In this document: positions 3,443 through 29,252 of the stretch, one piece after another
How the letters are laid out: each line of letters opens with the position of its first letter
Position numbering within the stretch: position 1 is the first letter of the stretch
Assembly: GCA_024638385.1 (NCBI GenBank)
Contig: JAHEKJ010000003.1
Coordinates: 9,402-73,401, forward strand
Length of the DNA stretch: 64,000 nt
Origin: Gammaproteobacteria bacterium
Lineage (GTDB): Bacteria; Pseudomonadota; Gammaproteobacteria; GCA-001735895
Reading direction: 5' to 3'
Program-made: the position numbers and the translations under genes
The notes under the pieces: model-generated
What the model saw: the letters and a program-made list of their open reading frames with translations, nothing else
What the model was told of the DNA's origin: nothing
Database searches by the model: none

Positions 3443-3450
3443 ACCTTCGC

Positions 3451-4467: not shown

Positions 4468-4512
4468 CGCCGGGATCGGGGATTGGCCGGTTTGCCGCCG
4501 AGGCGCAGCGCG

Positions 4513-8747: not shown

Positions 8748-8751
8748 GCGT

Positions 8752-12793: not shown

Positions 12794-12908
12794 GCGTCCC
12801 TCTGCTGCGTGACCGCCTCGATTGTTGCTGCAGGCCGGCCGAACGGCGCGAGTTTAGCCATTATCTGTTTGAAATTTAAGCACATTCTCGGATCATCGGA
12901 AAATCGGC

Positions 12909-12935
12909 AAAAAAAAGGCCGCGAGTTTCGCGGCC
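12909..12935 (-). terminator. Rho-independent terminator after tsf
   Basis: On the minus strand a GGCCGCG-AAACT-CGCGGCC hairpin is followed by eight T residues. It begins 8 nt downstream of the tsf stop codon. Confidence 0.8.
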
Positions 12936-12942
12936 CAGGCGA

Positions 12943-13815
12943 TCAGGATTCGAGCTGCGACGCCACTTCGGCGGCAAAATCCTCGACCTTCTTGTCGATG
13001 CCCTCGCCGACCTCGTAACGCACGTAGCGATTGACTCTCGCACCGGCCGCGGCCAGCAGCTTGCCGACGGTCCGGTCGGGGTCCTTGACGAACGGCTGCC
13101 CGAGCAGCGTAATCTCGCCGAGAAACTTGTTCAGTCGCCCTTCGATCATCTTTTCGACGATTTCCGGCGGCTTGCCGCTGGACTCGGCCTGGGCGACGAG
13201 GATCGACTTTTCCTTGTCGACGAACTCGGCCGGAATCGCGTCCCGGTCGACGAATTGCGGATTGGACGCGGCGATGTGCATCGCGATATCGCGCGCGAGC
13301 TCGGCCTCGGCGTCGCTGTCGACGAGTACGCCGATACGCGCGCCGTGGAGATAGCTGGCGATCGCGGAGTCCGCCTCGACGATCTCGAAGCGTCGCACCT
13401 GGATGTTTTCACCGACCTTGCCGATCAGGGCCTGGCGCGCCGCCTCGACGTTCTGGCCGTCGGCCATCGACAGTGCCAGCAACGCTTCGACCGAATCCGG
13501 GCGCTCGTCGAGCAATAGCGCGACGGCCGCGTCGGCAAAGGCCTGGAAGTTATCGTCCTTGGCGACGAAGTCGGTCTCGGAATTGATTTCGAGTATTGCC
13601 GCGATCTTGCCGTCAGCGCTGACGCTGACCTTGATGGCGCCGTCGGCGGCGACCCGGCCGGCCTTCTTGTCGGCCTTGGCGGCGCCGGATTTGCGCATCA
13701 GCTCGGCCGCGGCCTCGATGTCGCCTTCGGTTTCCTGGAGCGCCTTCTTGCACTCCATCATGCCGGCGCCGGTGCGTTCGCGCAGTTCCTTGACTAATGC
13801 TGCTGTGATTGACAC
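12943..13815 (-). CDS. tsf: Translation elongation factor Ts
   Basis: 290 aa. N-terminus [26 protein letters not shown]. Lies downstream of rpsB. Confidence 0.96.
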
Positions 13816-13858
13816 TTCGATACCTCAGTGTTTGTCCGCCAGCCGCGGCGGAACCCGG

Positions 13859-15331
13859 TTAATCCTTGGCCGCGGCCTTCTTGGTCGCGGCTTTCTTGGT
13901 CGCGGCCTTCTTGGTCGCGGCCTTCTTGGTCGCGGCCTTCTTGGTCGTCGCCTTCTTGGTGGCGGCTTTCTTGGTCGCGGCCTTCTTGGTGGCGGCCTTC
14001 TTGGTGGCGGCCTTCTTGGTGGCGACCTTCTTGACCGCAGCCTTCTTCGGCGTCGCCTCGGCGTCCGCGTCGGCGGATATCGCCGCCGCGGCCTCGGACT
14101 CGGTCTCCGGCTCGGCTTTGGTCTCCGGCTCGGCTTTGGCCTCCGGCTCGGGTTTGGCCTCCGGCTCGGCTTTGGCCTCCGGCTCGGCTTTGGCCTCCGG
14201 CTCGGCTTTGGCCTCCGGCTCGGCCCTGGTCTCCGGCTCGGCTTTGGCCTCCGGCTCGGCTTTGGCCTCCGGCTCGGCCCTGGTCTCCGGCTCGGCCCTG
14301 GTCTCCGGCTCGGCCCTGGACTCCGGCTCGGCTTCGGTGCCGATCTCGATCTCGGCTTCGCTCACGGTTTTGGCCTCAGTTTCGGCCTCGACTTGCGCCT
14401 CGGGCTCCACTTTCGGTGACTCCGTGACGGGCTCCGCCGCGCTCGCGGCCGCGGAACCGGCGTCGACATCGTCCCCGATCGCGGCTTCGAGTTCGGCCTC
14501 GGCGACCGCCGCGGCGGGATCGATGGCCTCGCTCTTGGCCGCGCCGGTCGTCGGCACCTTGCTGCTGATCTTGACCGCCGGCGCGGCCTCGACCTCGGCG
14601 TCGCTGTCGACCTCGATCAGCTCGTCATCGCCGTCGGCGCCGGCGACGATGCTCTGCTTGCCCTCCAGAATCGCATCGGCGGCGAGGCGCGCGTACAGCC
14701 GAATCGCGCGCATCGAGTCGTCGTTGCCCGGAATGATGTACTCGATTTCGTCCGGCGAATTATTGGTGTCGACGACGCCGACGACCGGGATGCCGAGCTT
14801 GGCCGCCTCCTGCACCGCGATCTTTTCGTAACCGACGTCGATGACGAACAGCGCTTCGGGCAGGCCACCCATGTCCTTGATGCCGCCGAGCGTCCTGTCG
14901 AGCTTTTCCTGCTCGCGCGACAGTTGCAGGATTTCCTTCTTGCTGATTTTCTCGTAGGAATTGCTCTCGGCCATTTCCTCGAGCTCCTTCAGGCGCTTGA
15001 TCGACGCGCGCACGGTGCGGAAATTGGTCAGCATGCCGCCCAGCCAGCGGTGGTTGACGAAAGGCATGCCACAGCGTTCGGCTTCCTCGCGGAGCGCATC
15101 GCTGGCGGCGCGCTTGGTGCCGACGAACAGGATCTTGCCCTTTTTCGACGCGACCTTGCCGAGGTAGTTGGTCGCATCCTTGCACAGCGGCAGGGTATGC
15201 TCGAGGTTGATGATGTGGATCTTGTTGCGTTCGCCGAAAATGAACGGTGCCATCTTCGGATTCCAGAAACGGGTCTGGTGACCGAAATGCACGCCCGCTT
15301 CCAACATTTCACGCATCGTGAAGTTAGACAT
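13859..15331 (-). CDS. rpsB: 30S ribosomal protein S2 with a roughly 250-aa repetitive C-terminal extension
   Basis: 490 aa. The first ~230 aa are canonical S2 ([27 protein letters not shown]...). They are followed in frame by an acidic D/E/A stretch, [12 protein letters not shown] hexapeptide repeats and KKAAT pentapeptide repeats. Confidence 0.93.
13868..14050 (-). repeat. 15-nt in-frame tandem repeat encoding (KKAAT)n
   Basis: About 11-12 near-identical copies of GGCCTTCTTGGTCGC on the plus strand. They lie inside the 3' end of rpsB. Confidence 0.9.
14097..14337 (-). repeat. 18-nt in-frame tandem repeat encoding ([12 protein letters not shown])n
   Basis: About 13 copies of CTCCGGCTCGGCTTTGGC or the variant CTCCGGCTCGGCCCTGGT on the plus strand, inside rpsB. 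Confidence 0.9.
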
Positions 15332-15571
15332 GTTTGCTCCAGATGTCAGCTGGCCGGGATTTCACCGACCGGGGTTAAGCCTCCACATGCCCGCCGCTCA
15401 CGACCCGCTCACTGGTATCACGGGCACCCATGAGGGCGTTGTCGACATGTGTGTGTCGTTTAATTTACCGCCGGCCGGCGCGATCCGGAAGAATCCGGAC
15501 CCCGCGGTTGCCGAGGGCGCGCGCTTTATAACATAATCGCCTATTCGCAACAACCGGCCGACGACAGAAAT

Positions 15572-16339
15572 ATGGGCGTGACGATCAAGACCGCGGACGA
15601 AATCGAGAAAATGCGCGTTGCCGGCCGGCTCGCGGCCGACGTACTGCGCATGATCGAGCCGCACGTCGAGCCCGGGATCACGACCGAGGCGCTCGATCGC
15701 GTCTGCCACGACTACATGGTCGACGAACTCGACGTCATCCCGGCGCCGCTGAATTACCGGGGTTTTCCGAAATCGATCTGCACCTCGGTCAACCACGTCG
15801 TCTGCCACGGCATCCCGAGCGACAAGAAGCTCAAGCACGGCGATATCATCAACATCGACATCACCGTAATCAAGGACGGCTACCACGGCGATACCAGCCG
15901 CATGTTCCAGGTCGGCAAACCCACCGTGCAAGGCGAACGCATCAGCCGCATCGCCTACGAATGCATGAAGATCGGCATCGAGATGATCCGCCCCGGCATA
16001 CGCCTCGGCGATATCGGCCACGCGATCCAGAGCCACGCCGAACGCAATAACTGCTCGATCGTGCGCGAATACTGCGGACACGGCATCGGCAAGGTATTCC
16101 ACGAAGATCCGCAGGTGTTGCACTACGGCAAGCCGGGGACCGGCCTGCTGCTCGAGCCGGGCATGACCTTCACGGTCGAACCGATGGTCAACCTCGGCCG
16201 GCGACACGTCAAGCTGCTGCCCGACGACTGGACCGTCGTGACCAAGGACCACAGCCTGTCGGCGCAGTGGGAGCACACCAATCTCGTCACCGACGACGGC
16301 TTCGAAGTGCTGACGCTGCATCCCGATTACGGGTTCTGA
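15572..16339 (+). CDS. map: Type I methionine aminopeptidase
   Basis: 255 aa. Pita-bread fold motifs (DIINIDITV, YCGHGIGKVFHE, FTVEPM). Divergent from rpsB, as in many Gammaproteobacteria. Confidence 0.95.
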   Translation: MGVTIKTADEIEKMRVAGRLAADVLRMIEPHVEPGITTEALDRVCHDYMVDELDVIPAPLNYRGFPKSICTSVNHVVCHGIPSDKKLKHGDIINIDITVIKDGYHGDTSRMFQVGKPTVQGERISRIAYECMKIGIEMIRPGIRLGDIGHAIQSHAERNNCSIVREYCGHGIGKVFHEDPQVLHYGKPGTGLLLEPGMTFTVEPMVNLGRRHVKLLPDDWTVVTKDHSLSAQWEHTNLVTDDGFEVLTLHPDYGF

Positions 16340-16340
16340 C

Positions 16341-19010
16341 GTGAGCCCGCTCGACCTGATCGACGCGGCACTCGAGCGAGCGGGCGACAACGAAACGCTG
16401 CGGGCGGCGCCGCTGGCGGCCGCGCTCGAGCAGGCGCGGCAGCAGATTTATCGCGAATTCGACGACGGCGCCGACACCGCCGCCCTGGTACACGCCGGCG
16501 CCGAGGTTATCGACCGCCTGTTGCGCTTCTGCTTCGGCCATTACTTCGGCGGCGCGGCCGCCCGCGGCCCGACCGAGCGCGGACCCGCCCTGCTCGCCGT
16601 CGGCGGCTACGGCCGACGCGAAATCCTCCCCGGCTCCGACATCGACATGATGATCCTGCTCGACAAGAAGGCCAATCGCGAACTCGAGCAGCGGATATCG
16701 GAATTTCTGACGCTGCTGTGGGACATCGGTCTCGAGGTCGGGCACAGCGTGCGCAGCGTGCGCGATTGCGTCGCCCAGGGCAAGGCCGACGTGACCGTCA
16801 TGACCAACATGATCGAGTCCCGCCTGGTCGACGGCAACGCCAGGCTCTACGCGAAGTTCGAGCAGGCGATCTCGCCGCGCAAGCTGTGGTCGTCGCGCCA
16901 GTTCTTCGAAGCCAAGCTCGACGAGCAACGCGCCCGTCACCAGCGCTTCAACGACACGGCGTACAATCTCGAGCCCAATATCAAGGAGGGTCCCGGCGGC
17001 CTGCGCGACATCCAGATCATCGGCTGGGTCGCGAAACGCCACTACGGCGCCGGCTCGTTTCACGAACTGGTCGAGCACGGCTTTCTGACCGAAGCCGAGT
17101 ACGAACGTCTCGACGCCGGTCAAAAACACCTGTGGCGGGTGCGCTTCGCGCTGCACCGCATCGCCGGTCGCCGCGAGGACCGATTGCTGTTCGACTACCA
17201 GAACAAGATCGCCGAGGCTTTCGGTTACGTCAGCGGCGAACACAACCTGGCGATCGAGCAGTTCATGCAGCAGTACTACCGTACGATCATGGACCTCGAA
17301 CGCCTGAGCGAGATGCTGCTGCAAATCTTCAGGGAAGAGATCCTGCTGTCCGGCTCGAAACACAAGATCACGCCGCTCAACGAGCGTTTTCGCCTGCGTA
17401 ACGATTTCATCGAGGTGGCGCATCCCGACGTGTTCAGGCAGCACCCGCCGGCGCTGGTCGAGCTGTTTCTGCTGATCTCGCTCAATGAACGCTGCGAGGG
17501 CGTCACCGCGGCGACGATTCGGCTGGTGCGCGAACACCTCTATCTCGTCGACGACGAGTTCCGCGGCAACGACGAGGTGACCCGGCTGTTCATGCAGCTG
17601 ATGAGCGCGCCCAGCGGCATGACCCACCAGATGCGGCGAATGAATTCCTACGGCTTCCTCGCCGCCTACATCCCGGCCTTCGGCAAGATAACCGGGCGCA
17701 TGCAATACGATTTGTTCCATGCCTACACCGTCGACCAGCATACGATCTTCGTGATCCGCAACCTGCGTCGCTTCGCGCTGAAAAAACACGAGGACGAGTT
17801 TCCGTTCTGCAACTACGTCTACAGCAAGCTCGAGAACCCGACCCTGCTCTACATCGCCGCGCTGTTTCACGACATCGCCAAGGGCCGCGGCGGCGACCAC
17901 TCGGTGCTCGGCGCCGAGGAAGCCACCCGTTTCTGCGTGCAGCACAAGCTCAATCGCAAGGAAACCCGCGTCGTTTCGCAGCTCGTGCGCGATCACCTGC
18001 TGATGTCGGTGACCGCGCAGCGCAAGGACATCAGCGACCCCGACGTGGTGCGCGAATTCGCGCGCCAGATCGGCAGCATGAACATGTTGAATTACCTCTA
18101 CCTGCTGACCGTGGCCGACATTCGCAGCACCAACCCGAAGCTCTGGAACAACTGGAAGGACGCCCTGCTCAAGCAGCTCTACCAGGCGACCAAGAAGGTC
18201 ATTCGCCGCGGCATCGAGCACGCCCCCGACATCGACGAAATCATCCAGGAAAACCGCGACGCGGCGATGGAGGCGATGAGCGACCTGCCCTATACGGCCG
18301 AGCAAATCAATTCGGTTTGCGAGCGGCTGCCCGGCGACTACTTCCTGCGCCACCACCCGCTCGAAATCCGCTGGCACGTCGACCAGATCCTGAGCCATCC
18401 GGACGAGTCGATCCTCGTCAGCGTGCGCCAGGCCCGCCAAACCAAGAATACCAAGCTGTTCGTCTACGCCGACGAGGTCGCACACGCATTCTCGCAGGTC
18501 ACCGGTACGCTCGGCGCGCTCGGCCTGTCGATTCTGAACGCGGAAATCTTCACCACCAGCGACGGCAAGATCATGGATACCTTCATCATCCAGGATCAGA
18601 ACGGCCAGCCGGTCACGGACCCGGAACTGATTACCCAGATCCGGCAACAACTGCTCGTCGCGCTGCGCTCGGACTCGATCTACGAAGGCGAGTACCACGT
18701 GCGACAGCCGCGCCACCTCAAGGCCTTCGATCACCCGACCGAGGTCCAGTTCGAGCAGGATTATCTCAACAGCCGCACGGTCATGGAGATCAGCGCGCTC
18801 GACATGCCCGGACTGCTGTCGATCATTGCGAACGTCATCGCCGGGATGGACATCGACATCACCCATGCCAAGATTTCGACGCTCGGCGAAAAAATCGACG
18901 ACATCTTTTACCTGACGACGGTCGACGGCAAGGCCATCACCGATCCCGCGGTGCTCGATCGGCTGGCGCAAGACCTGAAACAGGCGCTCGATGCGCGCAG
19001 GGCGGCCTGA
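16341..19010 (+). CDS. glnD: Bifunctional [protein-PII] uridylyltransferase/uridylyl-removing enzyme
   Basis: 889 aa. Nucleotidyltransferase motif GGYGRREILPGSDIDMMIL, HD domain FHDIAKGRGGDH, ACT-like C-terminal repeats. GTG start lies 1 nt after the map stop. Confidence 0.94.
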   Translation: MSPLDLIDAALERAGDNETLRAAPLAAALEQARQQIYREFDDGADTAALVHAGAEVIDRLLRFCFGHYFGGAAARGPTERGPALLAVGGYGRREILPGSDIDMMILLDKKANRELEQRISEFLTLLWDIGLEVGHSVRSVRDCVAQGKADVTVMTNMIESRLVDGNARLYAKFEQAISPRKLWSSRQFFEAKLDEQRARHQRFNDTAYNLEPNIKEGPGGLRDIQIIGWVAKRHYGAGSFHELVEHGFLTEAEYERLDAGQKHLWRVRFALHRIAGRREDRLLFDYQNKIAEAFGYVSGEHNLAIEQFMQQYYRTIMDLERLSEMLLQIFREEILLSGSKHKITPLNERFRLRNDFIEVAHPDVFRQHPPALVELFLLISLNERCEGVTAATIRLVREHLYLVDDEFRGNDEVTRLFMQLMSAPSGMTHQMRRMNSYGFLAAYIPAFGKITGRMQYDLFHAYTVDQHTIFVIRNLRRFALKKHEDEFPFCNYVYSKLENPTLLYIAALFHDIAKGRGGDHSVLGAEEATRFCVQHKLNRKETRVVSQLVRDHLLMSVTAQRKDISDPDVVREFARQIGSMNMLNYLYLLTVADIRSTNPKLWNNWKDALLKQLYQATKKVIRRGIEHAPDIDEIIQENRDAAMEAMSDLPYTAEQINSVCERLPGDYFLRHHPLEIRWHVDQILSHPDESILVSVRQARQTKNTKLFVYADEVAHAFSQVTGTLGALGLSILNAEIFTTSDGKIMDTFIIQDQNGQPVTDPELITQIRQQLLVALRSDSIYEGEYHVRQPRHLKAFDHPTEVQFEQDYLNSRTVMEISALDMPGLLSIIANVIAGMDIDITHAKISTLGEKIDDIFYLTTVDGKAITDPAVLDRLAQDLKQALDARRAA

Positions 19011-19023
19011 ACTGCGGACCGGC

Positions 19024-20601
19024 ATGGACGGCGTACCGGGCAAACCCTTCGATCAGGCCAGCGACGGCGAAAACAATGCGGTCTTGTTCGACGTCGGCTA
19101 CCCGCTGCGTCGCGGTCTCGACGCGGCGATACGCGAACTGCGCGATCGCTACGGCGATGCCTTGCGCCTGCTGCCGATGGCGGGCACGTCGGGAGCCGGC
19201 GGCATTTTCCAGGTGCCGAAACCGCCCGGCAGCACCGTCGTCGCGCTGCGCCTCGACGCACCTCCGACGCCCCGCGTGCGTGTCGGCGAGGTCCCGGATC
19301 CGGCCGCGCTCGAGCTCGACGAAATCGTCATCGACGAGTCCCGGCAAGCGGTGGGGGCCGGCGCCGCGATTACCCTCGATCAACTGAGCCGCGCACTCGA
19401 GGACCGGCTCGGACCCGGCCATCGCGTGCCCGGCGCCGACCTGACCAGCTACCAGTACGCCGCGGTCGGCGCGACCTTCATGACCGGCGGCATGGGGCCG
19501 CAGCGACGCTATTTCAGCGACAGCGTCGACGCGATCGCGCTACACGACGGCGAGAGTCTTGCGACGATCGACGGCGACGCGCTTGCCGATTTCGCCGGCA
19601 CCTACGGCTGGAGCGGCATGGTTAGCGCGCTGCGTTGTCGCTATTTTCACTTCCCCGCCAACGAGATTTCGTTCGCGCTGCCGGTCGACGACGCGCCGGA
19701 CAGCCTCGCGCGCCTGCTGGCGCATCTCGCCGCGCACGCGTGGCTGGAGTTCGGCGGCGATGTGGTCGGCTCGGCGGCCGGCGACGGCGCGCTGATTCTC
19801 GGTCTCGAACACGTCAGCCGCGCGTCGATGCGGCCGCTGCTCGACGTCGCCGATAGCAACCCGGCCGGGCCTCGCGCGCGCGACCTCGCGCACAAGATCG
19901 AGGCCGCCGGCGCCGCCGGACTGATTTTCGTCAGCGGGCTGACCGACGGTTCGATCGACGAGTTTCTTGGCGCCCTGCTCGACGACGCCGCCGGCGAGAG
20001 CTTTACGCTGGCCGGAATCGATCTCGAGCACGCCGAGATCTTCGGCGATCCGGATGAAATGCGCTCGGTGCGCGAGGCGATTCCGTATGCCGCGCGCATG
20101 CAGCGGCCGACCGGCCGGCACGTATACAAGAACCATACCGACGCCGATATTCGCCTGCCGCCGGGCGGCGTAGAGGCCGCGATGACGCGACTGTGGCAAA
20201 TCAATCGCGAATACGTCGCCGCGGTCGACGCCTATTACCGCGAGCAAGCCGACATCGGCGGCGAAATCCTGGTTTACGGCCACCTCAACCCGTTCGGCGT
20301 CGATCCGCACAACCGCGTGACTATGAGCGCCGACGACCCCGACCGCTTCGCCGCCGCGCGCGATTACCTCATCGCACGGCGCGCGGACTACTATCGCGCG
20401 CTGGCCGAACTCTGCGTCGACAGCGACGCGGTTTTCGTCGGCGGCGAGAAAACCGCCGACTCGGAGCTCGGCATCTACCGGGCGCTGGGCGGCCCCGACA
20501 ACGCGCCGCCGGCGCTGCGCGAGCGTTTTCGGCGCCAGCGCGAACGGATTCGGGCGGCTGCGCCGCTGTTCAACTGGCGTGCACCCGAACCTTTCGTCTA
20601 G
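19024..20601 (+). CDS. Divergent FAD-linked oxidase-like protein (FAD_binding_4-like N-terminal half)
   Basis: ORF 18991..20601. I trimmed the start to ATG 19024, 13 nt after the glnD stop. The segment order resembles FAD-linked oxidases: LRLLPMAGTSGAGG, IVIDESRQAVGAGAAITLDQL, AAVGATFMTGGMGPQRRYFSDSVDAIALHDGE, GTYGWSGMVSAL, and C-terminal VYGHLNPFG. The family call rests on remembered motif patterns only. Confidence 0.5.
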   Translation: MDGVPGKPFDQASDGENNAVLFDVGYPLRRGLDAAIRELRDRYGDALRLLPMAGTSGAGGIFQVPKPPGSTVVALRLDAPPTPRVRVGEVPDPAALELDEIVIDESRQAVGAGAAITLDQLSRALEDRLGPGHRVPGADLTSYQYAAVGATFMTGGMGPQRRYFSDSVDAIALHDGESLATIDGDALADFAGTYGWSGMVSALRCRYFHFPANEISFALPVDDAPDSLARLLAHLAAHAWLEFGGDVVGSAAGDGALILGLEHVSRASMRPLLDVADSNPAGPRARDLAHKIEAAGAAGLIFVSGLTDGSIDEFLGALLDDAAGESFTLAGIDLEHAEIFGDPDEMRSVREAIPYAARMQRPTGRHVYKNHTDADIRLPPGGVEAAMTRLWQINREYVAAVDAYYREQADIGGEILVYGHLNPFGVDPHNRVTMSADDPDRFAAARDYLIARRADYYRALAELCVDSDAVFVGGEKTADSELGIYRALGGPDNAPPALRERFRRQRERIRAAAPLFNWRAPEPFV

Positions 20602-20622
20602 GTAGCGAGGCGCGTTACTCGG

Positions 20623-22371
20623 CTAGCGCTTGAATTCGAGCAGCTTGCCGAGCCCCGGCAGGCTCGCCGCCGGCAACATGCCGAGCGCGCGCAGTTCGTC
20701 GAGCACCGGCACCGGCAACGCGGCGCTGGCGGTCTTCTGATTCAGCACGCCCCCGATCACCACCGGCAACTCCAGCCCGGCGAGATCGAGCGCCGCGCGC
20801 AGCTGGCGCGCGTAGTCGAGCGCCATGCCGTTATGCGTGCTCAACAGCAGCGCATCCGCGGCGTCGCGTTCGAGCGCGGCGGCGATGTCGGCGGGCGATT
20901 GTTCGGCGCCGAGCCAGTTGACGCTGGCACCGGCCTCGCCGAGCAACTGCGCCAGCGCGCCGGCGGCGTGCTCGTGCACGTCGGTCGACGCGACGACGAG
21001 CCGCCGACCGGCAATGCGTGCGCGCATTTCGTCGCTGCCGAACAGGTCGCGATGCTCGTCGACGAGGTCGCGCGACAGCGCGCACATGTCGGTGACGAGC
21101 GCCGCGTCCTTATCGAGATGCCCGGCGAACAGCACCTCGAAGCGCGCGGCGCCGAGCCGCTTGAGCACGTACAGCAGTCGCAGCGGGTCGCGGATATCCA
21201 CGCCGCAGTCCGCGAGCCCCGCGAGCGCGCGCTCGAAGATGGCCTGGCCGTCGCGACAAACGGTATCGGCGAATGCCTCGGCGGCGCCGAAATCGACGTG
21301 CGGGAAGAGCCGCCGCGCGCTGGCCTCGACGCGCCGGCCGAACAGCTGTGCTTCGACGATCTCGTCGGCCGACGGTATCCGGATAGCCTCGGTCACCGGT
21401 AACGGCAGCACTGCGTGGCCGCTCGGCGCGTACAGCTGGGCGAGGATGTCCCAGCTCAGGTACTCGGCGGTCAGCGCGCGATTGTGCTCGAACTCGTGGC
21501 CGAACGACAGCGTATCGCCGTAAATCATCGAACCGACGTGCTCACCGCGATGGATGCGCTGTAGCGCGACGACCCAGCCGACCCGGCGCAGCGGATCGCG
21601 GGTCAACCCGCCGATGCAATGCGCGAGGCGCGCACCGACCAGTTCTCCGACCAGATAGTGCTCGAGCATGGCCCAGGCGGCGACCGTTGCGCAGTGGCGG
21701 AACAAAGCGCCATAACCGTCTTCCAGATAGGAATGCAGCATTACGCCGCGCTCGCGAAACTCGGCGAGCAACAGCATCGCCTCGCAGGTTTGCGCCGCCG
21801 TTGCGCCGACATCGTCCCAGCCGGGAGCGGCGAAGGTGAAGTACTGCGACAGGTTGCCGATCGTCGTGCAACCGATCCCGAGGGCGGCGACCGCGTTCGC
21901 AACCGAGGCCGGCTGGCCGATCATGAAGTCGCCGAGGTGCGGCTGAATCGGCGCCGCCTGCGCGAGCGCATCCCAGTCGCGCGAACTCTCGAGCATCGGC
22001 CCGGTCTCGGCCGCGACCCGGCCGCGTCGCTCGGGCGGCAGGCCCATGCGCCGATCGAGCGCGAAACCCGCGCGGTCGAGGCGATGACCGCGGGCCGCGA
22101 GTTCGCGGTGGATGGCGGTCAGCGCCGCGGCGGTCGCGTCGACGTCGTTCAAGCCGATATGCGCGTGATACATGATCCGGCCATCGCGCATCGACTGTTG
22201 CTTGTACTCGAATTCGGAGGCGACGCCGTGCGCGTCGAGGAATGCCGAGCGTCCGAGGCGGATGGCGCCGGCCGTTGCGCGCGCGCGGGCGCGCAGGTCG
22301 GCGACGCGCGGCAGCGGCCTTGCCGCGAGCCGGCGCAAGCCATCGAGGGCGTCGGCGTGCGCCGGGTTCAC
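20623..22371 (-). CDS. B12-binding-domain fusion protein with a ~440-aa N-terminal domain (possibly glutamate-mutase-E-like)
   Basis: 582 aa. The C-terminal ~130 aa show the Rossmann-like cobalamin-binding pattern: RRLVVASTDVHEHAAGALAQLLGEAGASVNWLG...DALLLSTHNG...PVVIGGV. This is a DxH motif with Ala where the canonical DxHxxG has Gly. The N-terminal domain has only loose resemblance to GlmE (for example VTEAIRIPSADEI versus HEAIGIPTKEAN). Confidence 0.5.
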   Translation of the reverse strand: MNPAHADALDGLRRLAARPLPRVADLRARARATAGAIRLGRSAFLDAHGVASEFEYKQQSMRDGRIMYHAHIGLNDVDATAAALTAIHRELAARGHRLDRAGFALDRRMGLPPERRGRVAAETGPMLESSRDWDALAQAAPIQPHLGDFMIGQPASVANAVAALGIGCTTIGNLSQYFTFAAPGWDDVGATAAQTCEAMLLLAEFRERGVMLHSYLEDGYGALFRHCATVAAWAMLEHYLVGELVGARLAHCIGGLTRDPLRRVGWVVALQRIHRGEHVGSMIYGDTLSFGHEFEHNRALTAEYLSWDILAQLYAPSGHAVLPLPVTEAIRIPSADEIVEAQLFGRRVEASARRLFPHVDFGAAEAFADTVCRDGQAIFERALAGLADCGVDIRDPLRLLYVLKRLGAARFEVLFAGHLDKDAALVTDMCALSRDLVDEHRDLFGSDEMRARIAGRRLVVASTDVHEHAAGALAQLLGEAGASVNWLGAEQSPADIAAALERDAADALLLSTHNGMALDYARQLRAALDLAGLELPVVIGGVLNQKTASAALPVPVLDELRALGMLPAASLPGLGKLLEFKR

Positions 22372-23000
22372 GCCTTGCCGATCGGATCGAGAAATTCGAC
22401 TTTACCGGTGTCGAGCGAGTACTCGGCGCCGACGACCTCGAGCCGGCCCGCGTCGATCAGCCGCTCGAGGATTTGCGAGCCGTGGCGCAGATGGCCGACC
22501 GACGCGCGGATATTGGCGCGCACGGCCCGGCGCATCAGGCGCGCGGCATCGTCGCGCATCTCGGTCTCGAGCAGCGTTTCGACCGCCGGCCGAATGCGGT
22601 CGACGATCGCCCGCAGGTTCGGCGAGCGCTGTTCGCTGGGCCGCGCGAGCTCCTCGAGCGTGGCCTCGACCGCGCCGCAGTGGGTATGGCCGAGCACCAC
22701 CACCAGCGGCGAGCCGAAGCGCTCGGCGGCGAACTCGACGCTGCCGATCTGCGACGGCGCGATGACGTTGCCGGCGACGCGAATCACGAAGAGTTCGCCG
22801 AGGCCCTGATCGAATATGATTTCGGCCGGCACGCGCGCGTCCGAACAACCGATCACGATCGCGATCGGCCGCTGCTCGGCGACCAGCCGGTAGCGCCGCG
22901 CGCTGGCCGACTCGGAATCGCCGGCATTCAGATCGGCGACGAAACGATTATTGCCGTCGACGAGGCGCGCGAGCGCCTCGGCTGCAGATATTCCGACCAT
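22368..23000 (-). CDS. Beta-class carbonic anhydrase
   Basis: 210 aa. Zinc-ligand motifs CSDARV and GHTHCGAV. 4-nt overlap with the downstream B12-domain gene. Confidence 0.9.
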   Translation of the reverse strand: MVGISAAEALARLVDGNNRFVADLNAGDSESASARRYRLVAEQRPIAIVIGCSDARVPAEIIFDQGLGELFVIRVAGNVIAPSQIGSVEFAAERFGSPLVVVLGHTHCGAVEATLEELARPSEQRSPNLRAIVDRIRPAVETLLETEMRDDAARLMRRAVRANIRASVGHLRHGSQILERLIDAGRLEVVGAEYSLDTGKVEFLDPIGKA

Positions 23001-23003
23001 TGC

Positions 23004-23369
23004 TCATTCTCCTCCGTTACGATCCGACCAGACCGCGAGCTCGTTGCCGCTGGGTTCGGTAAAGTGAAAGCGGCGACCGCCGGGGAACGCGAAAATCGGT
23101 TTGACGATTTGACCGCCGGCCCGTTCGACGCGGGCCTGCGTCGCCTCGAGATCCTCGCTGTAGAAGACCAGCAGCGCGCCGCCCGCCTGCGTGCTCGAGT
23201 GGAGCGGAGCGCGGTAAAAGCCGCCGTCGAGACCCTCGCCGGCAAACGCACAGTAGTCGGGCCCGTAGTCGTCGAAGCGCCAGCCGAAGGCGGCGGCGAA
23301 AAAGGCCCTGGTTGCATCGAGATCCCGCGCCGGAAACTCGACGTAGTCGATTTTTTCGTGTCGCTTCAT
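23004..23369 (-). CDS. VOC (glyoxalase/bleomycin-resistance fold) family protein
   Basis: 121 aa. IDYVEFPARDLDATRAFFAAAFGW beta-alpha-beta-beta-beta module and C-terminal RRFHFTEPSGNELAVWS. 4-nt overlap with the upstream Mo-enzyme gene. Confidence 0.8.
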   Translation of the reverse strand: MKRHEKIDYVEFPARDLDATRAFFAAAFGWRFDDYGPDYCAFAGEGLDGGFYRAPLHSSTQAGGALLVFYSEDLEATQARVERAGGQIVKPIFAFPGGRRFHFTEPSGNELAVWSDRNGGE

Positions 23370-25462
23370 GCACTGCCTCCCGTGTCGGTCCGAATCCAGA
23401 CCGCGGTATCGTGATAAATGGCGCCGCCGTTGGGCGGCCCGGGTTCGGCCGACACCAGCGCGTTGACGCCGAGCCCCTCGATAAAGGCGTGGTTCGGCCA
23501 GATACTCTCGATGACGACGACGCCGCGCTGCACGCCGTCGAACAGCTTAGCGTGCAGCAGAATATCCGCGAGCCGGTTGCCGACGCGCGCGAGTTCGCCG
23601 TCGCCGAGACCGAGCGCGGCCGCGTCGGCCGGATGGATCAGCAGCGTCGGCCGAGCCTCGGCGCGGCGCGACCCGGGCGTCTCGGTAAAGCTGGTGTTCA
23701 GGAATTGCCGCGCCGGCGCCGCGACCAGGCGAAACGGGTGCTCGTCGTCGGCGGCGTGCATGACCGGCAGGTAATCGGGCAGCGCCGGCATCGCGGCGTA
23801 ATCCGGCCCGACCCGGCTCCAGTCCGGCCTGAAATGAAACCGGCGGTCGGGCGTTTCGAAGCCGTCGAGAAAATTGTCATGCTCGAAGCCACCCGCGCAA
23901 TCGTGCCAGTGCGCCGCGAACAGGGTCGCTTCGTCGGGCAGGCCGCTGCGGCGGAGCGCGTCGTCTATCAGCGCACGCGGGCTCTGCTCGAAACCCGGAT
24001 GGCTGTGACCGAGCCGCCGTGCGAGCTCGGCCAGCACCCGGTGGTTGCTGCGGCACTCGGCGAACGGCTCGATCAGCGCGCGCGTGACCTGCAAATGCGT
24101 ATGACCGCCGGCCTGGTAAAAGTCGTCGTGTTCCAGAAACATCGTCGCCGGCAGCACGATGTCGGCGAACGCCGCGGTCTCGGTCATGAACTGTTCGTGC
24201 ACGCAGACGAACAAGTCGTCGCGCGCGAACCCGGCGAGGACCTTGCGCGTCTCCGGCGCGACCACCGCGGGATTGGTATTTTGCACCAGCAGCGCGGTCA
24301 CCGGCGGGCCGCCCTGCAGATCGCGCGGGTCGCCGGCGAGCACATCGCCGATGCGCGACTGGTCGAGTACGCGCGTCGCCGGGTCGAGCACGTCGAGGCC
24401 CTTGATGACGGTCTGATCGATGCCGTAGATTCCGCCGTTGGCGTAGAGCGCGCCGCCGCCGGGTTCGCGCCAGGCGCCGGTCAGGGCCGGCAGGCAGGCC
24501 GCCGCGTGCATGTTGGCGGCGCCGTTGCGCGAGCGGGTAAACCCGTAGCCGAGGCGCAGAAAGCTGTTTTTGATGCCGCCGTAAAGTCGCGCGAACTCGA
24601 CGATTTCGTCCTCGTCGAGACCGGTGATATCGCTCGCCCAGGCCGGCGAGCGCGACGCCAGGTGCGACTCGAGCTCGCGCGGGACGTCGGTGTAGGCTTC
24701 GAGATACTCGCGGTCGACGAGATCGTCGGCGAACAGCTGGTGCATGACCGCGCAGGCCAGCGCGCCGTCGGTACCGGGGCGCAGCATCAGGTGCAGATCG
24801 GCCTTTTGCGCGGTCGCGTTGCGGTACGGATCGACGACCACCAGTTTCGCCCCGCGTTCGCGTCGCGCGCGGGCGACGTGGTGCATGGCGTTGACCTGGG
24901 TATAGACCGGGTTGCCGCCCCAGATCACGAGCAGGTCGCTGTCGGCCATCGCGCGCGGATCGGAACCGCGCTTGACGCCGGTGCCGGCGATCCAGCCGGC
25001 GTCCGCGAGCGTGATGCAAAACGTCGAGTGCTGGCGCGAAGTCTTCAGCAGGTTGCGGAACAGCTCGATGCTGTCGCGCTGCAGCAGGCCCATCGTGCCG
25101 GCGTAGTGATACGGCCAAAGCGTTTCGCTGCCGTGGCGCTGCATCGCGCGGGCGAAGGCTTCCGCAATCTCGTCGAGCGCGTCGTCCCAGCCGATCTCGA
25201 CGAAGGCGTCACGCCCCCGTCCCCTGGGCCCGCGACGGCGTAGCGGTTGTCCGAGGCGCTCGGGATGATGCACGCGCTCGGCATAGCGCGCGACCTTGGC
25301 GCACAGTACGCCGGCGGTGTAGGAATTATCGCGCGCGCCGCGCACGCGGCCTATGGTGCGCGCGTCGATCAGCTCGACTTCAAGCGCGCAGGTGCTCGGA
25401 CAGTCGTGGGGGCAGGCGGAGTAGCCCACCGCGGGATAGACGACGGCAGCCATGCGCGACAT
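23366..25462 (-). CDS. Molybdopterin (bis-MGD) oxidoreductase with N-terminal 4Fe-4S motif
   Basis: 698 aa. N-terminal CPHDCPSTCALEV cysteine cluster. Typical molybdopterin oxidoreductase stretches (LLVIWGGNPVYTQVN, KLVVVDPYRN, LRPGTDGALA). C-terminal molydopterin-dinucleotide-binding-like domain. Confidence 0.85.
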   Translation of the reverse strand: MSRMAAVVYPAVGYSACPHDCPSTCALEVELIDARTIGRVRGARDNSYTAGVLCAKVARYAERVHHPERLGQPLRRRGPRGRGRDAFVEIGWDDALDEIAEAFARAMQRHGSETLWPYHYAGTMGLLQRDSIELFRNLLKTSRQHSTFCITLADAGWIAGTGVKRGSDPRAMADSDLLVIWGGNPVYTQVNAMHHVARARRERGAKLVVVDPYRNATAQKADLHLMLRPGTDGALACAVMHQLFADDLVDREYLEAYTDVPRELESHLASRSPAWASDITGLDEDEIVEFARLYGGIKNSFLRLGYGFTRSRNGAANMHAAACLPALTGAWREPGGGALYANGGIYGIDQTVIKGLDVLDPATRVLDQSRIGDVLAGDPRDLQGGPPVTALLVQNTNPAVVAPETRKVLAGFARDDLFVCVHEQFMTETAAFADIVLPATMFLEHDDFYQAGGHTHLQVTRALIEPFAECRSNHRVLAELARRLGHSHPGFEQSPRALIDDALRRSGLPDEATLFAAHWHDCAGGFEHDNFLDGFETPDRRFHFRPDWSRVGPDYAAMPALPDYLPVMHAADDEHPFRLVAAPARQFLNTSFTETPGSRRAEARPTLLIHPADAAALGLGDGELARVGNRLADILLHAKLFDGVQRGVVVIESIWPNHAFIEGLGVNALVSAEPGPPNGGAIYHDTAVWIRTDTGGSA

Positions 25463-25575
25463 TGTGCAAGAAGGCAGATGCCGGCGCCAGTACTTCGCCG
25501 CGCCGCCGCACGCTTGTGCTCGAATCGCGAGATGCTAAACTGGGCGCCGTTTGACAGCGTCCCCGAGGAGAGCCA

Positions 25576-26745
25576 ATGAGCGGCCCGGACAAACCCAGTT
25601 TCAAGACCCGCGAGGTACATGCCGGCGTCGCGCCGGACCCGGTCACCGGCGCGATACTGACGCCGATTTACCAGAGCACGACCTATGTCCAGGAATCGGT
25701 CGACCAGTACCTCGAGAAGGGCTATTCCTACAGCCGCTCGGGCAATCCGACCGTGACCGCGCTCGAGGCGCGCATCACCGCGCTCGAGGGTGGCGCCGGC
25801 AGCCTGTGTTTCGCCACCGGCATGGCCGCGACCAGCTGCACGCTGATGGCCTTGCTCGACGCCGGCGATCACCTCGTCCTGTCCGACGTCGTCTATGGCG
25901 GCACCCACCGCGTCACGACCAAGGTGCTGAACCGCTGGGGTCTCGAGGCCAGTTTCGTCGATACCGCCGACGCCGCCAATGTCGAGGCCGCGATTCGCGA
26001 CAATACCCGGCTGATCTTCACCGAAACCCCGGCCAACCCGACGCTCAAGCTGACCGACATCGCGGCGGTATCCGAGGTCGCGCGCGCCCGCGGCATCCCG
26101 CACGTGGTCGACAACACCTTTCTGACGCCCTACTTGCAGCGCCCGCTCGAGCTCGGCGCCGACATCACGCTGCACAGCACGACCAAGTTCATGGAAGGCC
26201 ACAACATCAGCGTCGGCGGTTCGATCACGGCCGCCGACCCGACGCATCTAGAGCAAATCATGTTCGTACGCAACTGCCTCGGCAGCAACATGTCGCCGAT
26301 GGTCGCGTTCTATACCCTGCAGGGCATCAAGACGATGAGCACCCGGCTCGAGGCGCAATCGCAAAACGCGCTCGCTATCGCGCGCTTTCTCGAAACCCAC
26401 CCGATGGTCGAGCGCGTCGCTTACCCCGGTCTCGAATCCTTCCCGCAAAAGGAGCTCGCCGACCGCCAGGCCAGCGGCCACGGTTCGATGCTGTGGTTCG
26501 AGGTCAAGGGCGGCGTCGCCGCCGGCAAGCAGCTGATGGACACGCTCGAACTCTGGAGCCTGGCCGAAAACCTCGGCTCGGTCGAGTCGCTGGTGACGCA
26601 CTCGGTGACGATGACTCATGCCGACATGCCGCGCGAGGAACGGCTCGCCGCCGGCATTACCGACGGCCTCGTGCGTCTGTCGGCCGGGCTCGAGTCGGCC
26701 GACGATTTGATCGCCGATCTGAAGCAGGCACTCGACGGCCTCTAG
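25576..26745 (+). CDS. Cys/Met-metabolism PLP enzyme, cystathionine gamma-lyase-like
   Basis: 389 aa. YSRSGNPT and the PLP-lysine context HSTTKFMEGH. Clustered with a CBS gene. Confidence 0.85.
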   Translation: MSGPDKPSFKTREVHAGVAPDPVTGAILTPIYQSTTYVQESVDQYLEKGYSYSRSGNPTVTALEARITALEGGAGSLCFATGMAATSCTLMALLDAGDHLVLSDVVYGGTHRVTTKVLNRWGLEASFVDTADAANVEAAIRDNTRLIFTETPANPTLKLTDIAAVSEVARARGIPHVVDNTFLTPYLQRPLELGADITLHSTTKFMEGHNISVGGSITAADPTHLEQIMFVRNCLGSNMSPMVAFYTLQGIKTMSTRLEAQSQNALAIARFLETHPMVERVAYPGLESFPQKELADRQASGHGSMLWFEVKGGVAAGKQLMDTLELWSLAENLGSVESLVTHSVTMTHADMPREERLAAGITDGLVRLSAGLESADDLIADLKQALDGL

Positions 26746-26753
26746 CTCCGGGC

Positions 26754-27863
26754 ATGATCATCGTCAGCATCGAATCCTTTGCCACCGAGTACGTGGCAAT
26801 GGTTCGGGTACGCACCGACGATGGTGACGAGGGCTGGGGCCAGGTTTCGCCGTACAACGCCGACATCACCGCCGAAGTCCTGCATCGGCAGATCGCCCGC
26901 CACGTACTCGGCATGGACGCGAGCGATATCGCTGCGGTGACCCAGGTCGTGCTCGACCGCGAACACAAGTTTCAGGGCACCTATCTGTTCCGCGCACTTT
27001 GCGGAGTCGATACCGCGTTATGGGATATCGCGGCGAAACGCGCGGGCAAAAGCGTGCATCGCCTGCTCGGCGGTAATCGCTCAGAGTTTCCGGTTTACGC
27101 GTCGAGCATGAAGCGCGATATCACGCCGCAGGCGGAGGCCGAGCGGATGCTGGCGCTACGCGAGACGCACGGCTACCACTCGTTCAAATTTCGCATCGCG
27201 CGCGAATGCGGCCACGATAGTGATCAATGGCCGGGTCGCACCGAGGAAATCGTCAGGACCATGCGTGAAACGCTAGGCGACGAGGTGACGCTGCTGGTCG
27301 ACGCGAACAGCGGCTACACGCCAGCGAAAGCGATCGAGGTCGGCCACATGCTCCAGGATTATGGCGTCAGTCATTTCGAAGAACCGTGCCCCTACTGGGA
27401 ACTGGACTGGACGCGCCAGGTGACCGAGGCGCTGGATATCGACGTCACCGGAGGCGAGCAGGACAACAACATGATCGTCTGGAAACAGATGATCGACAGC
27501 CGCGCGGTCGACGTCGTGCAGCCCGATATTTGCTACATGGGCGGCATCACGCGTACGGCACAGGTCGCCGAGCATGCCCGCGAGGCCGGCATCCCGTGCA
27601 CGCTGCATTCGGCCAACCTGTCGCTGGTTACGCTGTTTTCGCTGCATTTCATGGCGGCAATCGAAAACGCCGGCAAATACGTCGAGTTTTCGATCGAGGG
27701 ACTGGACTATTACCCGTGGCAGCATAATCTGTTCAGCCCCGGTTTCGAGATCAAAAACGGGAACTGCCTGATTTCCGACGAGCCCGGCTGGGGTATCGAA
27801 ATCGACCCGGAGTGGCTCGCGCTCGGCGAATACCGGGTTAGTTACAATGCCGCCAGTTCATAA
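26754..27863 (+). CDS. Enolase-superfamily enzyme (mandelate racemase/muconate lactonizing family)
   Basis: This is the last 369 codons of the artefactual 770-aa ORF 25551..27863, with the ATG at 26754. Capping domain VRVRTDDGDEGWGQ. Barrel motifs FKFRIA, LLVDANSGY, FEEP, TGGEQD, DVVQPD. Confidence 0.82.
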   Translation: MIIVSIESFATEYVAMVRVRTDDGDEGWGQVSPYNADITAEVLHRQIARHVLGMDASDIAAVTQVVLDREHKFQGTYLFRALCGVDTALWDIAAKRAGKSVHRLLGGNRSEFPVYASSMKRDITPQAEAERMLALRETHGYHSFKFRIARECGHDSDQWPGRTEEIVRTMRETLGDEVTLLVDANSGYTPAKAIEVGHMLQDYGVSHFEEPCPYWELDWTRQVTEALDIDVTGGEQDNNMIVWKQMIDSRAVDVVQPDICYMGGITRTAQVAEHAREAGIPCTLHSANLSLVTLFSLHFMAAIENAGKYVEFSIEGLDYYPWQHNLFSPGFEIKNGNCLISDEPGWGIEIDPEWLALGEYRVSYNAASS

Positions 27864-27884
27864 TCAATTTGAGGGGGACCGCAG

Positions 27885-29252
27885 ATGGAAGTAGTTAATT
27901 CAGTACTCGAGCTCATCGGTAATACGCCGATCCTGAAGCTCAGCAAGTTCGATACCGGTCCCTGCGATCTGTACATCAAGATGGAATCGGAAAACCCGGG
28001 CGGTTCGATCAAGGATCGCATCGCGGTCTGGATGATCGAAGCAGCGGAAAAAGAAGGCAAGATCGAGCCCGGCGGCACGATCATCGAGGCCACCGCCGGC
28101 AATACCGGCCTCGGTCTCGGGCTGGTCGCCGCGCAAAAGGGTTACAAGCTGATTCTCGTCATTCCCGACAAGATGAGCCCGGACAAGATTCGACATATCC
28201 GCGCGATGGGCGTCGACGTGCGCCTGACCCGCTCCGACGTGCAAAAGGGCCACCCCGAGTACTACCAGGACTATGCCAAGCGCCTGGCCGCCGAGATTCC
28301 GAATTCGTACTTTATCGACCAGTTTTCCAATCCGAACAACCCCCGCACCCATCGCGAATTCACCGGCCCCGAAATCCTGCGCCAGATGGATGGCAAGCTC
28401 GACGCGGTCGTCGTCGGTGTCGGTTCCAGCGGCACGGTTACCGGATTGAGCCAGTTCTTCAAGCAAGAGCTACCCGATCTCGAAATGGTGGTCGCCGACC
28501 CGGTGGGTTCGATTCTTGCCGACACGATCAATACCGGAGTAACACCGCAGGCTTCGTCCTGGCTGGTCGAAGGCATCGGTGAGGATTTCCTGCCGCCGAT
28601 CTGCGATATCAGTCTGATCGAAAAAGCCTACGCGATCAGCGACCGGGAAGCCTTCAGCACGCAGCGCGAGTTACTGCGCCTCGAAGGCATTATCGCCGGC
28701 TCGTCGACCGGCACGCTGCTGTCGGCGGCGCTGCGCTACTGCCGCGAGCAAACCGAACCGAAGCGCGTACTGACCTTCGCCTGCGACACCGGCAACAAGT
28801 ATCTGAACAAGTCGTTCAACGATTCCTGGCTCGCCGACCAGGGTTTGCTCGAGCGCGAGTCCCACGGCGACCTGCGCGACCTGATCGCGCGGCCGATGGA
28901 CAGCGGCGATATGGTCACGGTGACCCCCGAGGACAACCTGATCACGACCTACAAACGCATGCGCATGTTCGACGTATCGCAGCTACCGGTCGTACAGGAC
29001 GGACATATCGTCGGCCTGATCGACGAATCCGACATCCTGCTCGGGATCTACGAGGACAAGGACAGCTTCCAGATGCTGGTCGGCGACGTCATGGTCAAGG
29101 ACCTCGACACCATGTCGCCGACCGCGTCGATCGACGACGTCGTCGAATTGTTCAAGCAGGACAAGGTCGCCATCGTCGCCGACGGCGACGTCTTCTACGG
29201 GTTGATCACGCGCATCGACCTGATTAACCACCTGCGCAAACAGATGCTGTGA
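27885..29252 (+). CDS. Cystathionine beta-synthase (PLP fold-II domain plus CBS pair)
   Basis: 455 aa. IGNTPILKL, PGGSIKDRIA (PLP Lys), TAGNTG, GVGSSGTVTG. Two CBS motifs in the C-terminal ~120 aa. Confidence 0.9.
   Translation: MEVVNSVLELIGNTPILKLSKFDTGPCDLYIKMESENPGGSIKDRIAVWMIEAAEKEGKIEPGGTIIEATAGNTGLGLGLVAAQKGYKLILVIPDKMSPDKIRHIRAMGVDVRLTRSDVQKGHPEYYQDYAKRLAAEIPNSYFIDQFSNPNNPRTHREFTGPEILRQMDGKLDAVVVGVGSSGTVTGLSQFFKQELPDLEMVVADPVGSILADTINTGVTPQASSWLVEGIGEDFLPPICDISLIEKAYAISDREAFSTQRELLRLEGIIAGSSTGTLLSAALRYCREQTEPKRVLTFACDTGNKYLNKSFNDSWLADQGLLERESHGDLRDLIARPMDSGDMVTVTPEDNLITTYKRMRMFDVSQLPVVQDGHIVGLIDESDILLGIYEDKDSFQMLVGDVMVKDLDTMSPTASIDDVVELFKQDKVAIVADGDVFYGLITRIDLINHLRKQML

Follow-up and report, generated by a model that had tools for sequence, protein, structure and literature searches.

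To our knowledge, only about a dozen reactions of adenosylcobalamin (AdoCbl)-dependent isomerases are known, and every one of them has added to what is known of radical chemistry. The 2-methyleneglutarate mutase of Eubacterium barkeri consists of one chain of ~600 residues whose C-terminal domain binds B12, and methylmalonyl-CoA epimerase has a VOC fold. Here we describe a gene cluster in a 64,000-nucleotide stretch (from this point on, the window) of contig JAHEKJ010000003.1, assembly GCA_024638385.1, from a gammaproteobacterium whose genome, referred to as G000, is 91% complete. Four minus-strand genes encode, in order, a molybdenum (Mo) oxidoreductase, a VOC protein, a beta-carbonic anhydrase (CA) and a protein with a B12-binding domain. 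We think it fairly probable that they form a real, tightly packed and probably co-transcribed cluster, specific to one lineage, in which the gene of a predicted mutase is the stable element, genes of the PhyH family and of the pyrroline-5-carboxylate reductase (P5CR)-like type are its partners, and the Mo and CA genes are facultative. The significance of the locus rests on the B12 enzyme, which has no assigned reaction, and not on the combination of four genes. The initial annotation, made from the DNA alone, had stated that this combination is not a described pathway. That label was right, and a full-text literature search, judged at the level of result listings, found no publication on either the B12 protein family or the Mo enzyme subfamily.

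A B12-domain protein with a predicted mutase fold

The last gene of the cluster (20623-22371, minus strand, GTG start) is the anchor of the locus, the stable core around which the other genes vary. Its 582-residue product has a sole Pfam match, PF02310 at residues 459-545, with no Pfam match to a DNA-binding or signalling domain and none to the aminomutase families PF09043 and PF16554. Relatives are plentiful. Among 8000 candidates scored, 797 homologues were found at E <= 0.001, bearing generic names such as 'cobalamin-dependent protein', and a profile search of 1.84 billion representatives returned 243 family representatives (50% identity) at E <= 1e-30. The family extends over Pseudomonadota, Actinomycetota, Thermodesulfobacteriota, Synergistota, Bacteroidota and candidate phyla and, among cultured bacteria, is carried by Solirubrobacter, by Microlunatus, with M. 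spumicola JCM 16540 (L070) as an example, and by Pseudaminobacter soli, strain NHI-8 (L076).

An AlphaFold2 (AF2) model of the protein (pLDDT 92.9), for which 36 diverse family members were used, predicts a GlmE-like TIM barrel at residues ~19-434, followed by a B12-binding Rossmann domain at ~451-582. The top Foldseek match of the protein is methylmalonyl-CoA mutase (MCM; 4req_A, E 2e-12). When compared by VIA-align, the barrel is closest to the E subunit of glutamate mutase, 1cb7_B (Z 28.1, rmsd 3.6 over 372 residues, model residues 19-434), with 6h9e_B at Z 28.0, and second-best is the alpha chain of lysine 5,6-aminomutase, 8t0v_A (Z 25.8, rmsd 3.4, 328 residues). The whole chain superposes on MCM 5req_A (Z 19.6, rmsd 3.4, 462 residues) and the C-terminal domain on GlmS 1i9c_A (Z 15.4, rmsd 2.3). 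In a sequence search of the PDB only the B12 domain finds matches, the best of which are mutase small subunits (2yxb at E 3.6e-13, with MetH at ~5e-6). H466 of this domain aligns with the cobalt-ligand histidine of the DxH motif in 2yxb, HcmB, IcmF and GlmS.

Conservation was scored on the same 36 members. In the B12 domain, H466 and G540-G541 are invariant and D464 is at least 90% conserved, and in the barrel R100, R107, R331, E53, E122, E237 and E328 are invariant in 36/36 members, these positions being taken from the family alignment only. G000 also encodes a PduO-type adenosyltransferase, together with three other B12-binding-domain proteins. The modelled fold and the B12 domain point to an AdoCbl enzyme of the mutase type, formed by one chain and belonging to an uncharacterised family, with a B12 domain of the His-on type, and would place the protein among the AdoCbl isomerases, outside the GlmE and MCM sequence families. 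As a mutase, it would use the adenosyl radical for the 1,2-rearrangement of a carboxylate-bearing, amino-acid-like substrate. This type of substrate is proposed because the invariant Arg, Glu, His and Tyr residues fit it, as do the peptide and amino-acid genes found around the homologues. The family has a confidently predicted mutase fold and no assigned reaction, and its P5CR-like and PhyH partners, described below, narrow the search for a substrate.

Packing, conservation and partners of the cluster

The Mo oxidoreductase gene (23366-25462, 698 aa) comes first in the cluster and is followed on the same minus strand by the VOC gene (23004-23369, 121 aa), the CA gene (22368-23000, 210 aa) and the B12 gene. 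The stop of the Mo gene and the start of the VOC gene overlap as ATGA at 23366-23369, with GGGAGG upstream of the VOC start. The VOC stop TGA is separated by GCA (23001-23003, a 3-nt gap) from the CA start ATG, which has GGAGGAG upstream, and the CA stop overlaps the B12 start as GTGA at 22368-22371. The open reading frames (ORFs), both overlaps and the gap are all where the initial annotation had put them, and its domain identities hold as well: PF04879, PF00384 and PF01568 match the Mo protein, PF00903 the VOC protein, PF00484 the CA and PF02310 the B12 protein, and the CSDAR and HTHCG motifs are present in the CA. The public gene call gives the Mo protein 695 aa, beginning 3 codons later than the 698-aa ORF, so translation may begin at the second ATG (25453). 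The same four-gene order occurs in full in five other species-level loci (L008, L018, L020, L021 and L026). In addition, DNA contigs of two other studies (X4 and X5), ~3-5% divergent, bridge the B12/CA and VOC/Mo junctions, and one of them (X4 only) also bridges the CA/VOC junction. Because these contigs come from independent studies, the four-gene arrangement is not an assembly artefact. The packing of the four genes is beyond chance.

The cluster would be transcribed from the 113-nt intergenic region at 25463-25575, which separates the Mo gene from a divergent plus-strand gene for a pyridoxal phosphate (PLP) enzyme and is the only place with room for a promoter. This region contains no match to the sigma-70 consensus. 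Across 18000-28000 no riboswitch, cobalamin riboswitches included, and no other Rfam family matched at E <= 0.1, and in 20000-26000 there are no promoter-like sites (0.3 expected) and five terminator-like sites (3.5 expected). A single transcript is compatible with the gene spacing and the Shine-Dalgarno-like sequences, and also with promoter and terminator sites that are not in excess. No RNA run was found to cover 20400-25700, and two runs labelled as metatranscriptomic, which are probably DNA, contain small parts of it. As for mobile elements, the repeats in 20300-25800 are short, GC-rich and at chance level, none brackets the block, and no mobile-element genes flank it.

Conservation of the set was followed over 80 fetched loci with relatives of the B12 protein, against which the proteins of the window were scored by tblastn. 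The nearest clade consists of 29 loci and the window (30 in all), and 43 more distant loci carry homologues at 33-55% identity. The locus tree was built with FastTree and has SH-like support only, so the branch order within the clade is approximate. With the window included, the VOC gene is present in all 26 assessable loci of the nearest clade, and it is within this clade only that VOC is a constant neighbour of the B12 gene. The Mo gene is present in 18 of 25 assessable loci, absent from six, in which the VOC gene directly adjoins the divergent PLP gene, and reduced to a remnant in one. This remnant (L001, 2150-2425) retains only residues 4-53 and 647-691, with an internal deletion of ~590 codons, next to intact VOC and PLP-enzyme genes. 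The CA gene is rarer still (7/27 assessable loci) and falls in two distinct subclades, alongside members that lack it. The four-gene form in full is found in the window and the five loci named above. Across the nearest clade, Mo proteins are 69-88% identical to that of the window, the range for Mo and VOC taken together being 67-89%. In a sister subclade, the B12 gene stands alone beside glnD in all six assessable loci.

In G152, a genus-mate with a 99% complete genome, map, glnD and X536 (a gene treated below) are followed by the PLP gene after 585 nt (L158, 7567-8150). The spacer between X536 and the PLP gene retains 57 and 18 codons of the B12 gene and 22 codons for the C-terminus of Mo as remnants of the block, which as a whole has been lost there. 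The content of this site thus ranges from scars only (G152) through B12 alone, VOC-B12 and Mo-VOC-B12 to all four genes. Around the 43 distant homologues, tblastn found none of Mo, VOC, CA and X536. Hidden Markov models (HMMs) of VOC, CA and Mo, built from the clade and run over 1536 flanking ORFs of these distant loci, likewise found none, except for one 16-bit Mo match. The cluster is confined to a single lineage of uncultured Gammaproteobacteria from sediment and is not a fixed four-enzyme pathway, and its distribution suggests that Mo and CA are facultative members. The Mo enzyme and the beta-CA would be passengers that were recruited to a variable site, bounded by glnD-X536 on one side and a divergent transsulfuration-type operon on the other, and have been lost from it repeatedly. 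The VOC protein may be a helper isomerase or epimerase, a weak suggestion made by analogy to methylmalonyl-CoA epimerase.

Other genes recur beside the B12 gene when the family is viewed as a whole. The neighbours of the 43 distant homologues were grouped by de novo ORF clustering, P5CR-like genes being also counted by HMM. The commonest neighbour is a P5CR-like gene, found in 16 loci by clustering and, within 6 kb of the B12 gene, in 17 by HMM. At 14 of those distant loci it lies on the same strand as the B12 gene and <=200 nt away. GntR/FCD regulators (12 loci), Opp-type ABC transporters (10 loci) and AIG2/gamma-glutamylcyclotransferase-like genes (8 loci, plus a fusion with an M19 dipeptidase) also recur, and single cases comprise an M20 amidohydrolase, a hydantoinase-A-type protein, encoded directly after the B12-protein homologue in L067, and PhyH dioxygenases.

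The fetched flanks of the 37 closer loci contain neither a PhyH nor a P5CR-like gene. In G000, the pair occurs on a different contig (C152; L193), where a gene for a PhyH-family Fe(II)/2-oxoglutarate (2OG) dioxygenase at 3235-4041 is followed after 3 nt by a P5CR-like gene, the second in this genome, at 4045-4812. The P5CR-like product is 31% identical (E 2e-37) to the partner encoded in L061. Searches of both C152 proteins against NCBIfam and the PDB gave generic matches only, with no equivalog reached. In the genus-mate G227 (L194) all three genes form one operon on the minus strand, with PhyH at 8271-9077, P5CR-like at 7482-8252 and B12 at 5561-7333. A survey of 31 genomes of the genus, which are related and partly incomplete metagenome-assembled genomes (MAGs), found 18 with both the B12 and the P5CR-like gene, two with B12 only (62% and 86% complete), four with P5CR-like only and seven with neither. 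In G152 (L196, 669-1659) the PhyH gene carries a frameshift and all that is left of the P5CR-like gene encodes the last 52-64 residues, a decay concordant with the loss of the block in that genome.

The mutase probably works with a PhyH-type Fe(II)/2OG dioxygenase and a P5CR-like imine reductase, which are unlinked, on C152, in G000. An Fe/2OG oxygenase paired with a P5CR homologue brings methylproline biosynthesis to mind. A bolder proposal, which we put forward tentatively, is that the B12 protein represents a new class of AdoCbl isomerase and that, together with the unlinked PhyH and P5CR-like enzymes, it makes up a three-enzyme route from an amino acid to a substituted proline- or pipecolate-type imino acid, extended in this lineage by VOC and Mo. 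If this were true, the three enzymes would rearrange and oxidise an amino acid and cyclise (or open) it, which would be B12 chemistry without a described counterpart.

The Mo enzyme, carbonic anhydrase and neighbouring genes

The Mo protein matches PF04879 (27.1 bits), PF00384 (137.1 bits) and PF01568 (62.0 bits), all above their cut-offs, and has the layout of the Mo/W-bisPGD (DMSO reductase) superfamily, with Fe4S4, molybdopterin and MGD-binding domains and four N-terminal Cys residues. Residue conservation was scored across 20 aligned homologues, in all of which the Fe-S motif C17-x3-C21-x3-C25...C54 and a further residue, C149, are invariant, which bears out the N-terminal Fe-S motif originally reported. 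The N-terminus of the ORF has no twin-arginine motif. These features predict a cytoplasmic, Cys-ligated Mo/W-bisPGD oxidoreductase with an N-terminal [4Fe-4S] site. Its closest solved relatives by sequence are formate dehydrogenases, at E 1e-42 to 1e-36 (9t1s_L at 1e-42), with 1aa6_A at E 9e-36. A formate-type reaction had been considered for the enzyme, and the proposal that it is a formate dehydrogenase was rejected. The residue that follows C149 is Ile in the window protein and I, T, S, V, A or G in the alignment, never His, so that the selenocysteine (Sec)/Cys-His dyad is lacking in 20/20 sequences, and two of three alignments with formate dehydrogenases put the formate dehydrogenase ligand on the variable positions A153/D154. 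NCBIfam equivalogs all score far under their cut-offs, the best being TIGR01591 with 231 bits vs 666. Orthologues of the Mo protein occur in ten genomes of other families (45-72% identity), none of which has a VOC, CA or B12 gene near them, and no neighbour is common to these loci.

The VOC protein is a single-domain protein matching PF00903 at residues 6-112 (53.5 bits vs a cut-off of 20.6). Its only NCBIfam match scores 24.9 bits vs a cut-off of 250, and no subfamily was assigned. The CA matches PF00484 (139.4 bits vs 25.7) and its translation contains GCSDAR and GHTHCG, so that the profile and the CxDxR ... HxxC pattern of Cys-His-Cys zinc ligands and Asp-Arg dyad together identify a beta-CA. 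As it is the sole PF00484 match found in G000, a role in a pathway is no more likely than a housekeeping one. Its orthologues (55-60% identity) lie away from any B12 gene in G228 and in G212, the latter having no B12 gene. Most genus-mates carry a different beta-CA, 28-44% identical to that of the cluster.

The convergent gene next to the cluster, X536 (18991-20601, plus strand, 536 aa), lies outside it and is co-oriented with map and glnD. Its longest ORF shares 20 nt with the end of glnD, and 21 nt (20602-20622) separate its end from the stop of the B12 gene. X536 has no Pfam match, not even to PF01565, the FAD_binding_4 profile of VAO/PCMH FAD-linked oxidoreductases, and no NCBIfam match. 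Its AF2 model (pLDDT 87.1, two loops below 50) finds 3pm9_A, mouse LDHD and human D2HGDH by Foldseek at E ~1e-15 with TM 0.58-0.70, and its Atlas feature score to clusters with PF01565 is 0.96. On this confidently predicted fold, X536 would be a divergent FAD-linked protein resembling D-2-hydroxyacid dehydrogenases, in agreement with the FAD-linked-oxidase-like neighbour and the 21-nt gap of the first description. The gene is present in 26 of 27 loci of the nearest clade, as opposed to none of the 43 distant ones, and in G152 it is retained beside glnD despite the loss of the block. It occurs in only three of 201 sampled genomes of the class. In one genome, G064, which has no B12 match, X536 (55%) stands at an unrelated site, ~1 Mb away from the Mo gene (72%). 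It is glnD that X536 accompanies, and not the block.

The genes below the cluster are pyrH, tsf and rpsB on the minus strand, then map, glnD and X536 on the plus strand. Above it, and divergent from it, three plus-strand genes encode the PLP enzyme (Cys/Met metabolism, 25576-26745), an enolase-superfamily protein and a cystathionine-beta-synthase-like protein. The enolase-superfamily gene, of the MR_MLE type, occupies ~26750-27863. In G152 (L158) no MR_MLE match was found, and the PLP gene (8151-9317) and the cystathionine-beta-synthase gene (9393-10757) are ~75 nt apart. The rpsB ORF (13859-15331, minus strand) encodes 490 aa, with the S2 domain at residues 9-224 and a C-terminal extension of ~265 residues that has a weak histone-H1-like (HC2) match. 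Only about the first 258 residues align in G152. AT skew is -0.16 to -0.17 at 12001-16000 and +0.21 at 58001-60000, and near 0 elsewhere in the window.

Alternative explanations and comparison with described systems

The initial annotation had seen in the four genes one conversion module with a CO2/bicarbonate step. Stated in full, this would be a dedicated pathway in which the Mo enzyme performs an oxo-transfer or formate-type step, CA handles CO2 or bicarbonate, the B12 protein carries out a rearrangement and VOC a finishing reaction. The stop/start overlaps and Shine-Dalgarno-like sequences that link all four genes speak for such a pathway, as do the recurrence of the order in five other species-level loci, the 67-89% identity of Mo and VOC across the clade and the presence of a single PF00484 gene in G000. 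We nevertheless regard it as improbable. CA is found in 7 of 27 loci, and Mo has been lost from 6 of 25 and has decayed in one more, while VOC and B12 persist. None of the three accompanying genes occurs near the 43 distant homologues, and Mo and CA have orthologues elsewhere without a B12 gene. Co-occurrence of the four families in relatives, on which that reading had been staked, is thus largely wanting. Moreover, the Mo enzyme is without the Sec/Cys-His dyad, and its being the sole beta-CA makes a housekeeping role for CA at least as likely. At the other extreme, the packing could be incidental, the site between glnD-X536 and the PLP operon being a hot spot whose Mo, VOC and CA genes are unrelated to the mutase. 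The variation at one site from scars to four genes is what such a hot spot would produce, the enolase-superfamily gene of the divergent operon is also variable (no MR_MLE match in L158), and all four proteins have generic family assignments only. However, VOC is never absent beside the B12 gene in the 26 assessable clade loci and overlaps the codons of its neighbours, and no repeats or mobile-element genes flank the block. We consider this explanation rather unlikely, if less so than the dedicated pathway.

It has also to be asked whether the B12 protein is a mutase at all, and not a methyltransferase of the corrinoid type, or a sensor or regulator that binds B12 and has a barrel domain. Methionine synthase modules are indeed among the matches (9cbo_A at Z 14.4, besides the MetH hit at E ~5e-6), the B12 motif has Ala for the Gly of DxHxxG, and the cluster contains no gene for a reactivase or G-protein chaperone. 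Yet the barrel is far closer to AdoCbl mutases (Z 28.1 and 25.8) than to MetH (Z 14), the domains are ordered and placed as in MCM over 462 residues, the B12 domain is best matched by mutase small subunits, no DNA-binding or signalling domain is present, and a hydantoinase-A-type gene directly follows the homologue in L067. A methyltransferase or sensor is therefore very improbable.

Several points weigh against our preferred reading, that of a lineage-specific cluster built around a stable mutase gene. Presence and absence were called by tblastn on loci that are cut at contig ends, and the probable co-transcription and translational coupling are judged from gene spacing alone. Neither PF06368 (GlmE) nor PF01642 (MCM) matches the 582-residue protein, and hhalign of the family alignment against three GlmE homologues gives a probability of 5%. 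At the sequence level nothing connects the barrel with a characterised mutase, and the enzyme class therefore rests on the predicted fold and the B12 domain. In that domain the motif reads D464-V-H466-E-H-A469, that is, DxHxxA with Ala in place of the canonical Gly of DxHxxG. In the 26 assessable clade loci VOC accompanies the B12 gene without exception, and Mo is kept in 18 of 25, so Mo and VOC may be truly connected in function with the mutase in this lineage. VOC and X536 each sit on a single tree branch, which amounts to one event and is weak evidence either way. Lastly, the co-occurrence of B12 and P5CR-like genes among related, incomplete MAGs is a hint, and it has exceptions: the P5CR-like gene occurs without B12 in G205 and G212, B12 is present but the pair is broken in G229, and in G230 no PhyH gene adjoins the P5CR-like gene. 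If the cluster is nonetheless as we read it, 'operons' with overlapping codons can hold facultative passengers, and guilt by association within a single genome would misassign both the Mo enzyme and the CA.

The formate dehydrogenases FdhF and F420-FDH share with the Mo protein the three-domain layout and the N-terminal [4Fe-4S] site. They differ from it in possessing the Sec/Cys-His dyad, since C149 of the Mo protein is never followed by His, and the Mo gene has no adjacent gene for an electron-transfer subunit. For the B12 protein, glutamate mutase GlmE2-GlmS2 (1cb7/1i9c/6h9e) offers a similar barrel fold, a GlmS-type domain and His-on, base-off binding, which in the B12 protein would occur via H466. 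Unlike the separate E and S subunits of glutamate mutase, which are accompanied by the accessory protein GlmL/MutL, the B12 protein is one 582-aa chain, and no ASKHA, hydantoinase or GlmL-type gene is found in the window cluster. Its barrel lacks sequence homology to GlmE (no PF06368 match, hhalign 5%), its gene context is unlike that of the methylaspartate pathway, and a search with PF06368 finds no match anywhere in G000, with matches in 3/401 genomes of the phylum.

Like the B12 protein, MCM is a single chain in which the barrel precedes the B12 domain, and the B12 protein can be superposed on it at full length. In contrast to MCM, the B12 protein has no PF01642 match, its barrel is closer to GlmE than to that of MCM, and no MeaB-type G-protein gene is adjacent. 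MCM acts on a CoA ester, and nothing suggests a substrate of this kind for the B12 protein. A likeness to the pairing of MCM with its VOC-fold epimerase lies in the small VOC-fold gene next to the B12 mutase gene. 2-Methyleneglutarate mutase, compared here by its general description only, has the same overall layout as the B12 protein, and no nicotinate-fermentation genes were seen around the 80 loci examined. Finally, lysine 5,6-aminomutase (KamD/KamE) and ornithine 4,5-aminomutase correspond to the second-best match of the barrel. Their subunit layout differs from that of the B12 protein. Both use amino acids as substrates, in keeping with the peptide and amino-acid genes near the distant B12 homologues.

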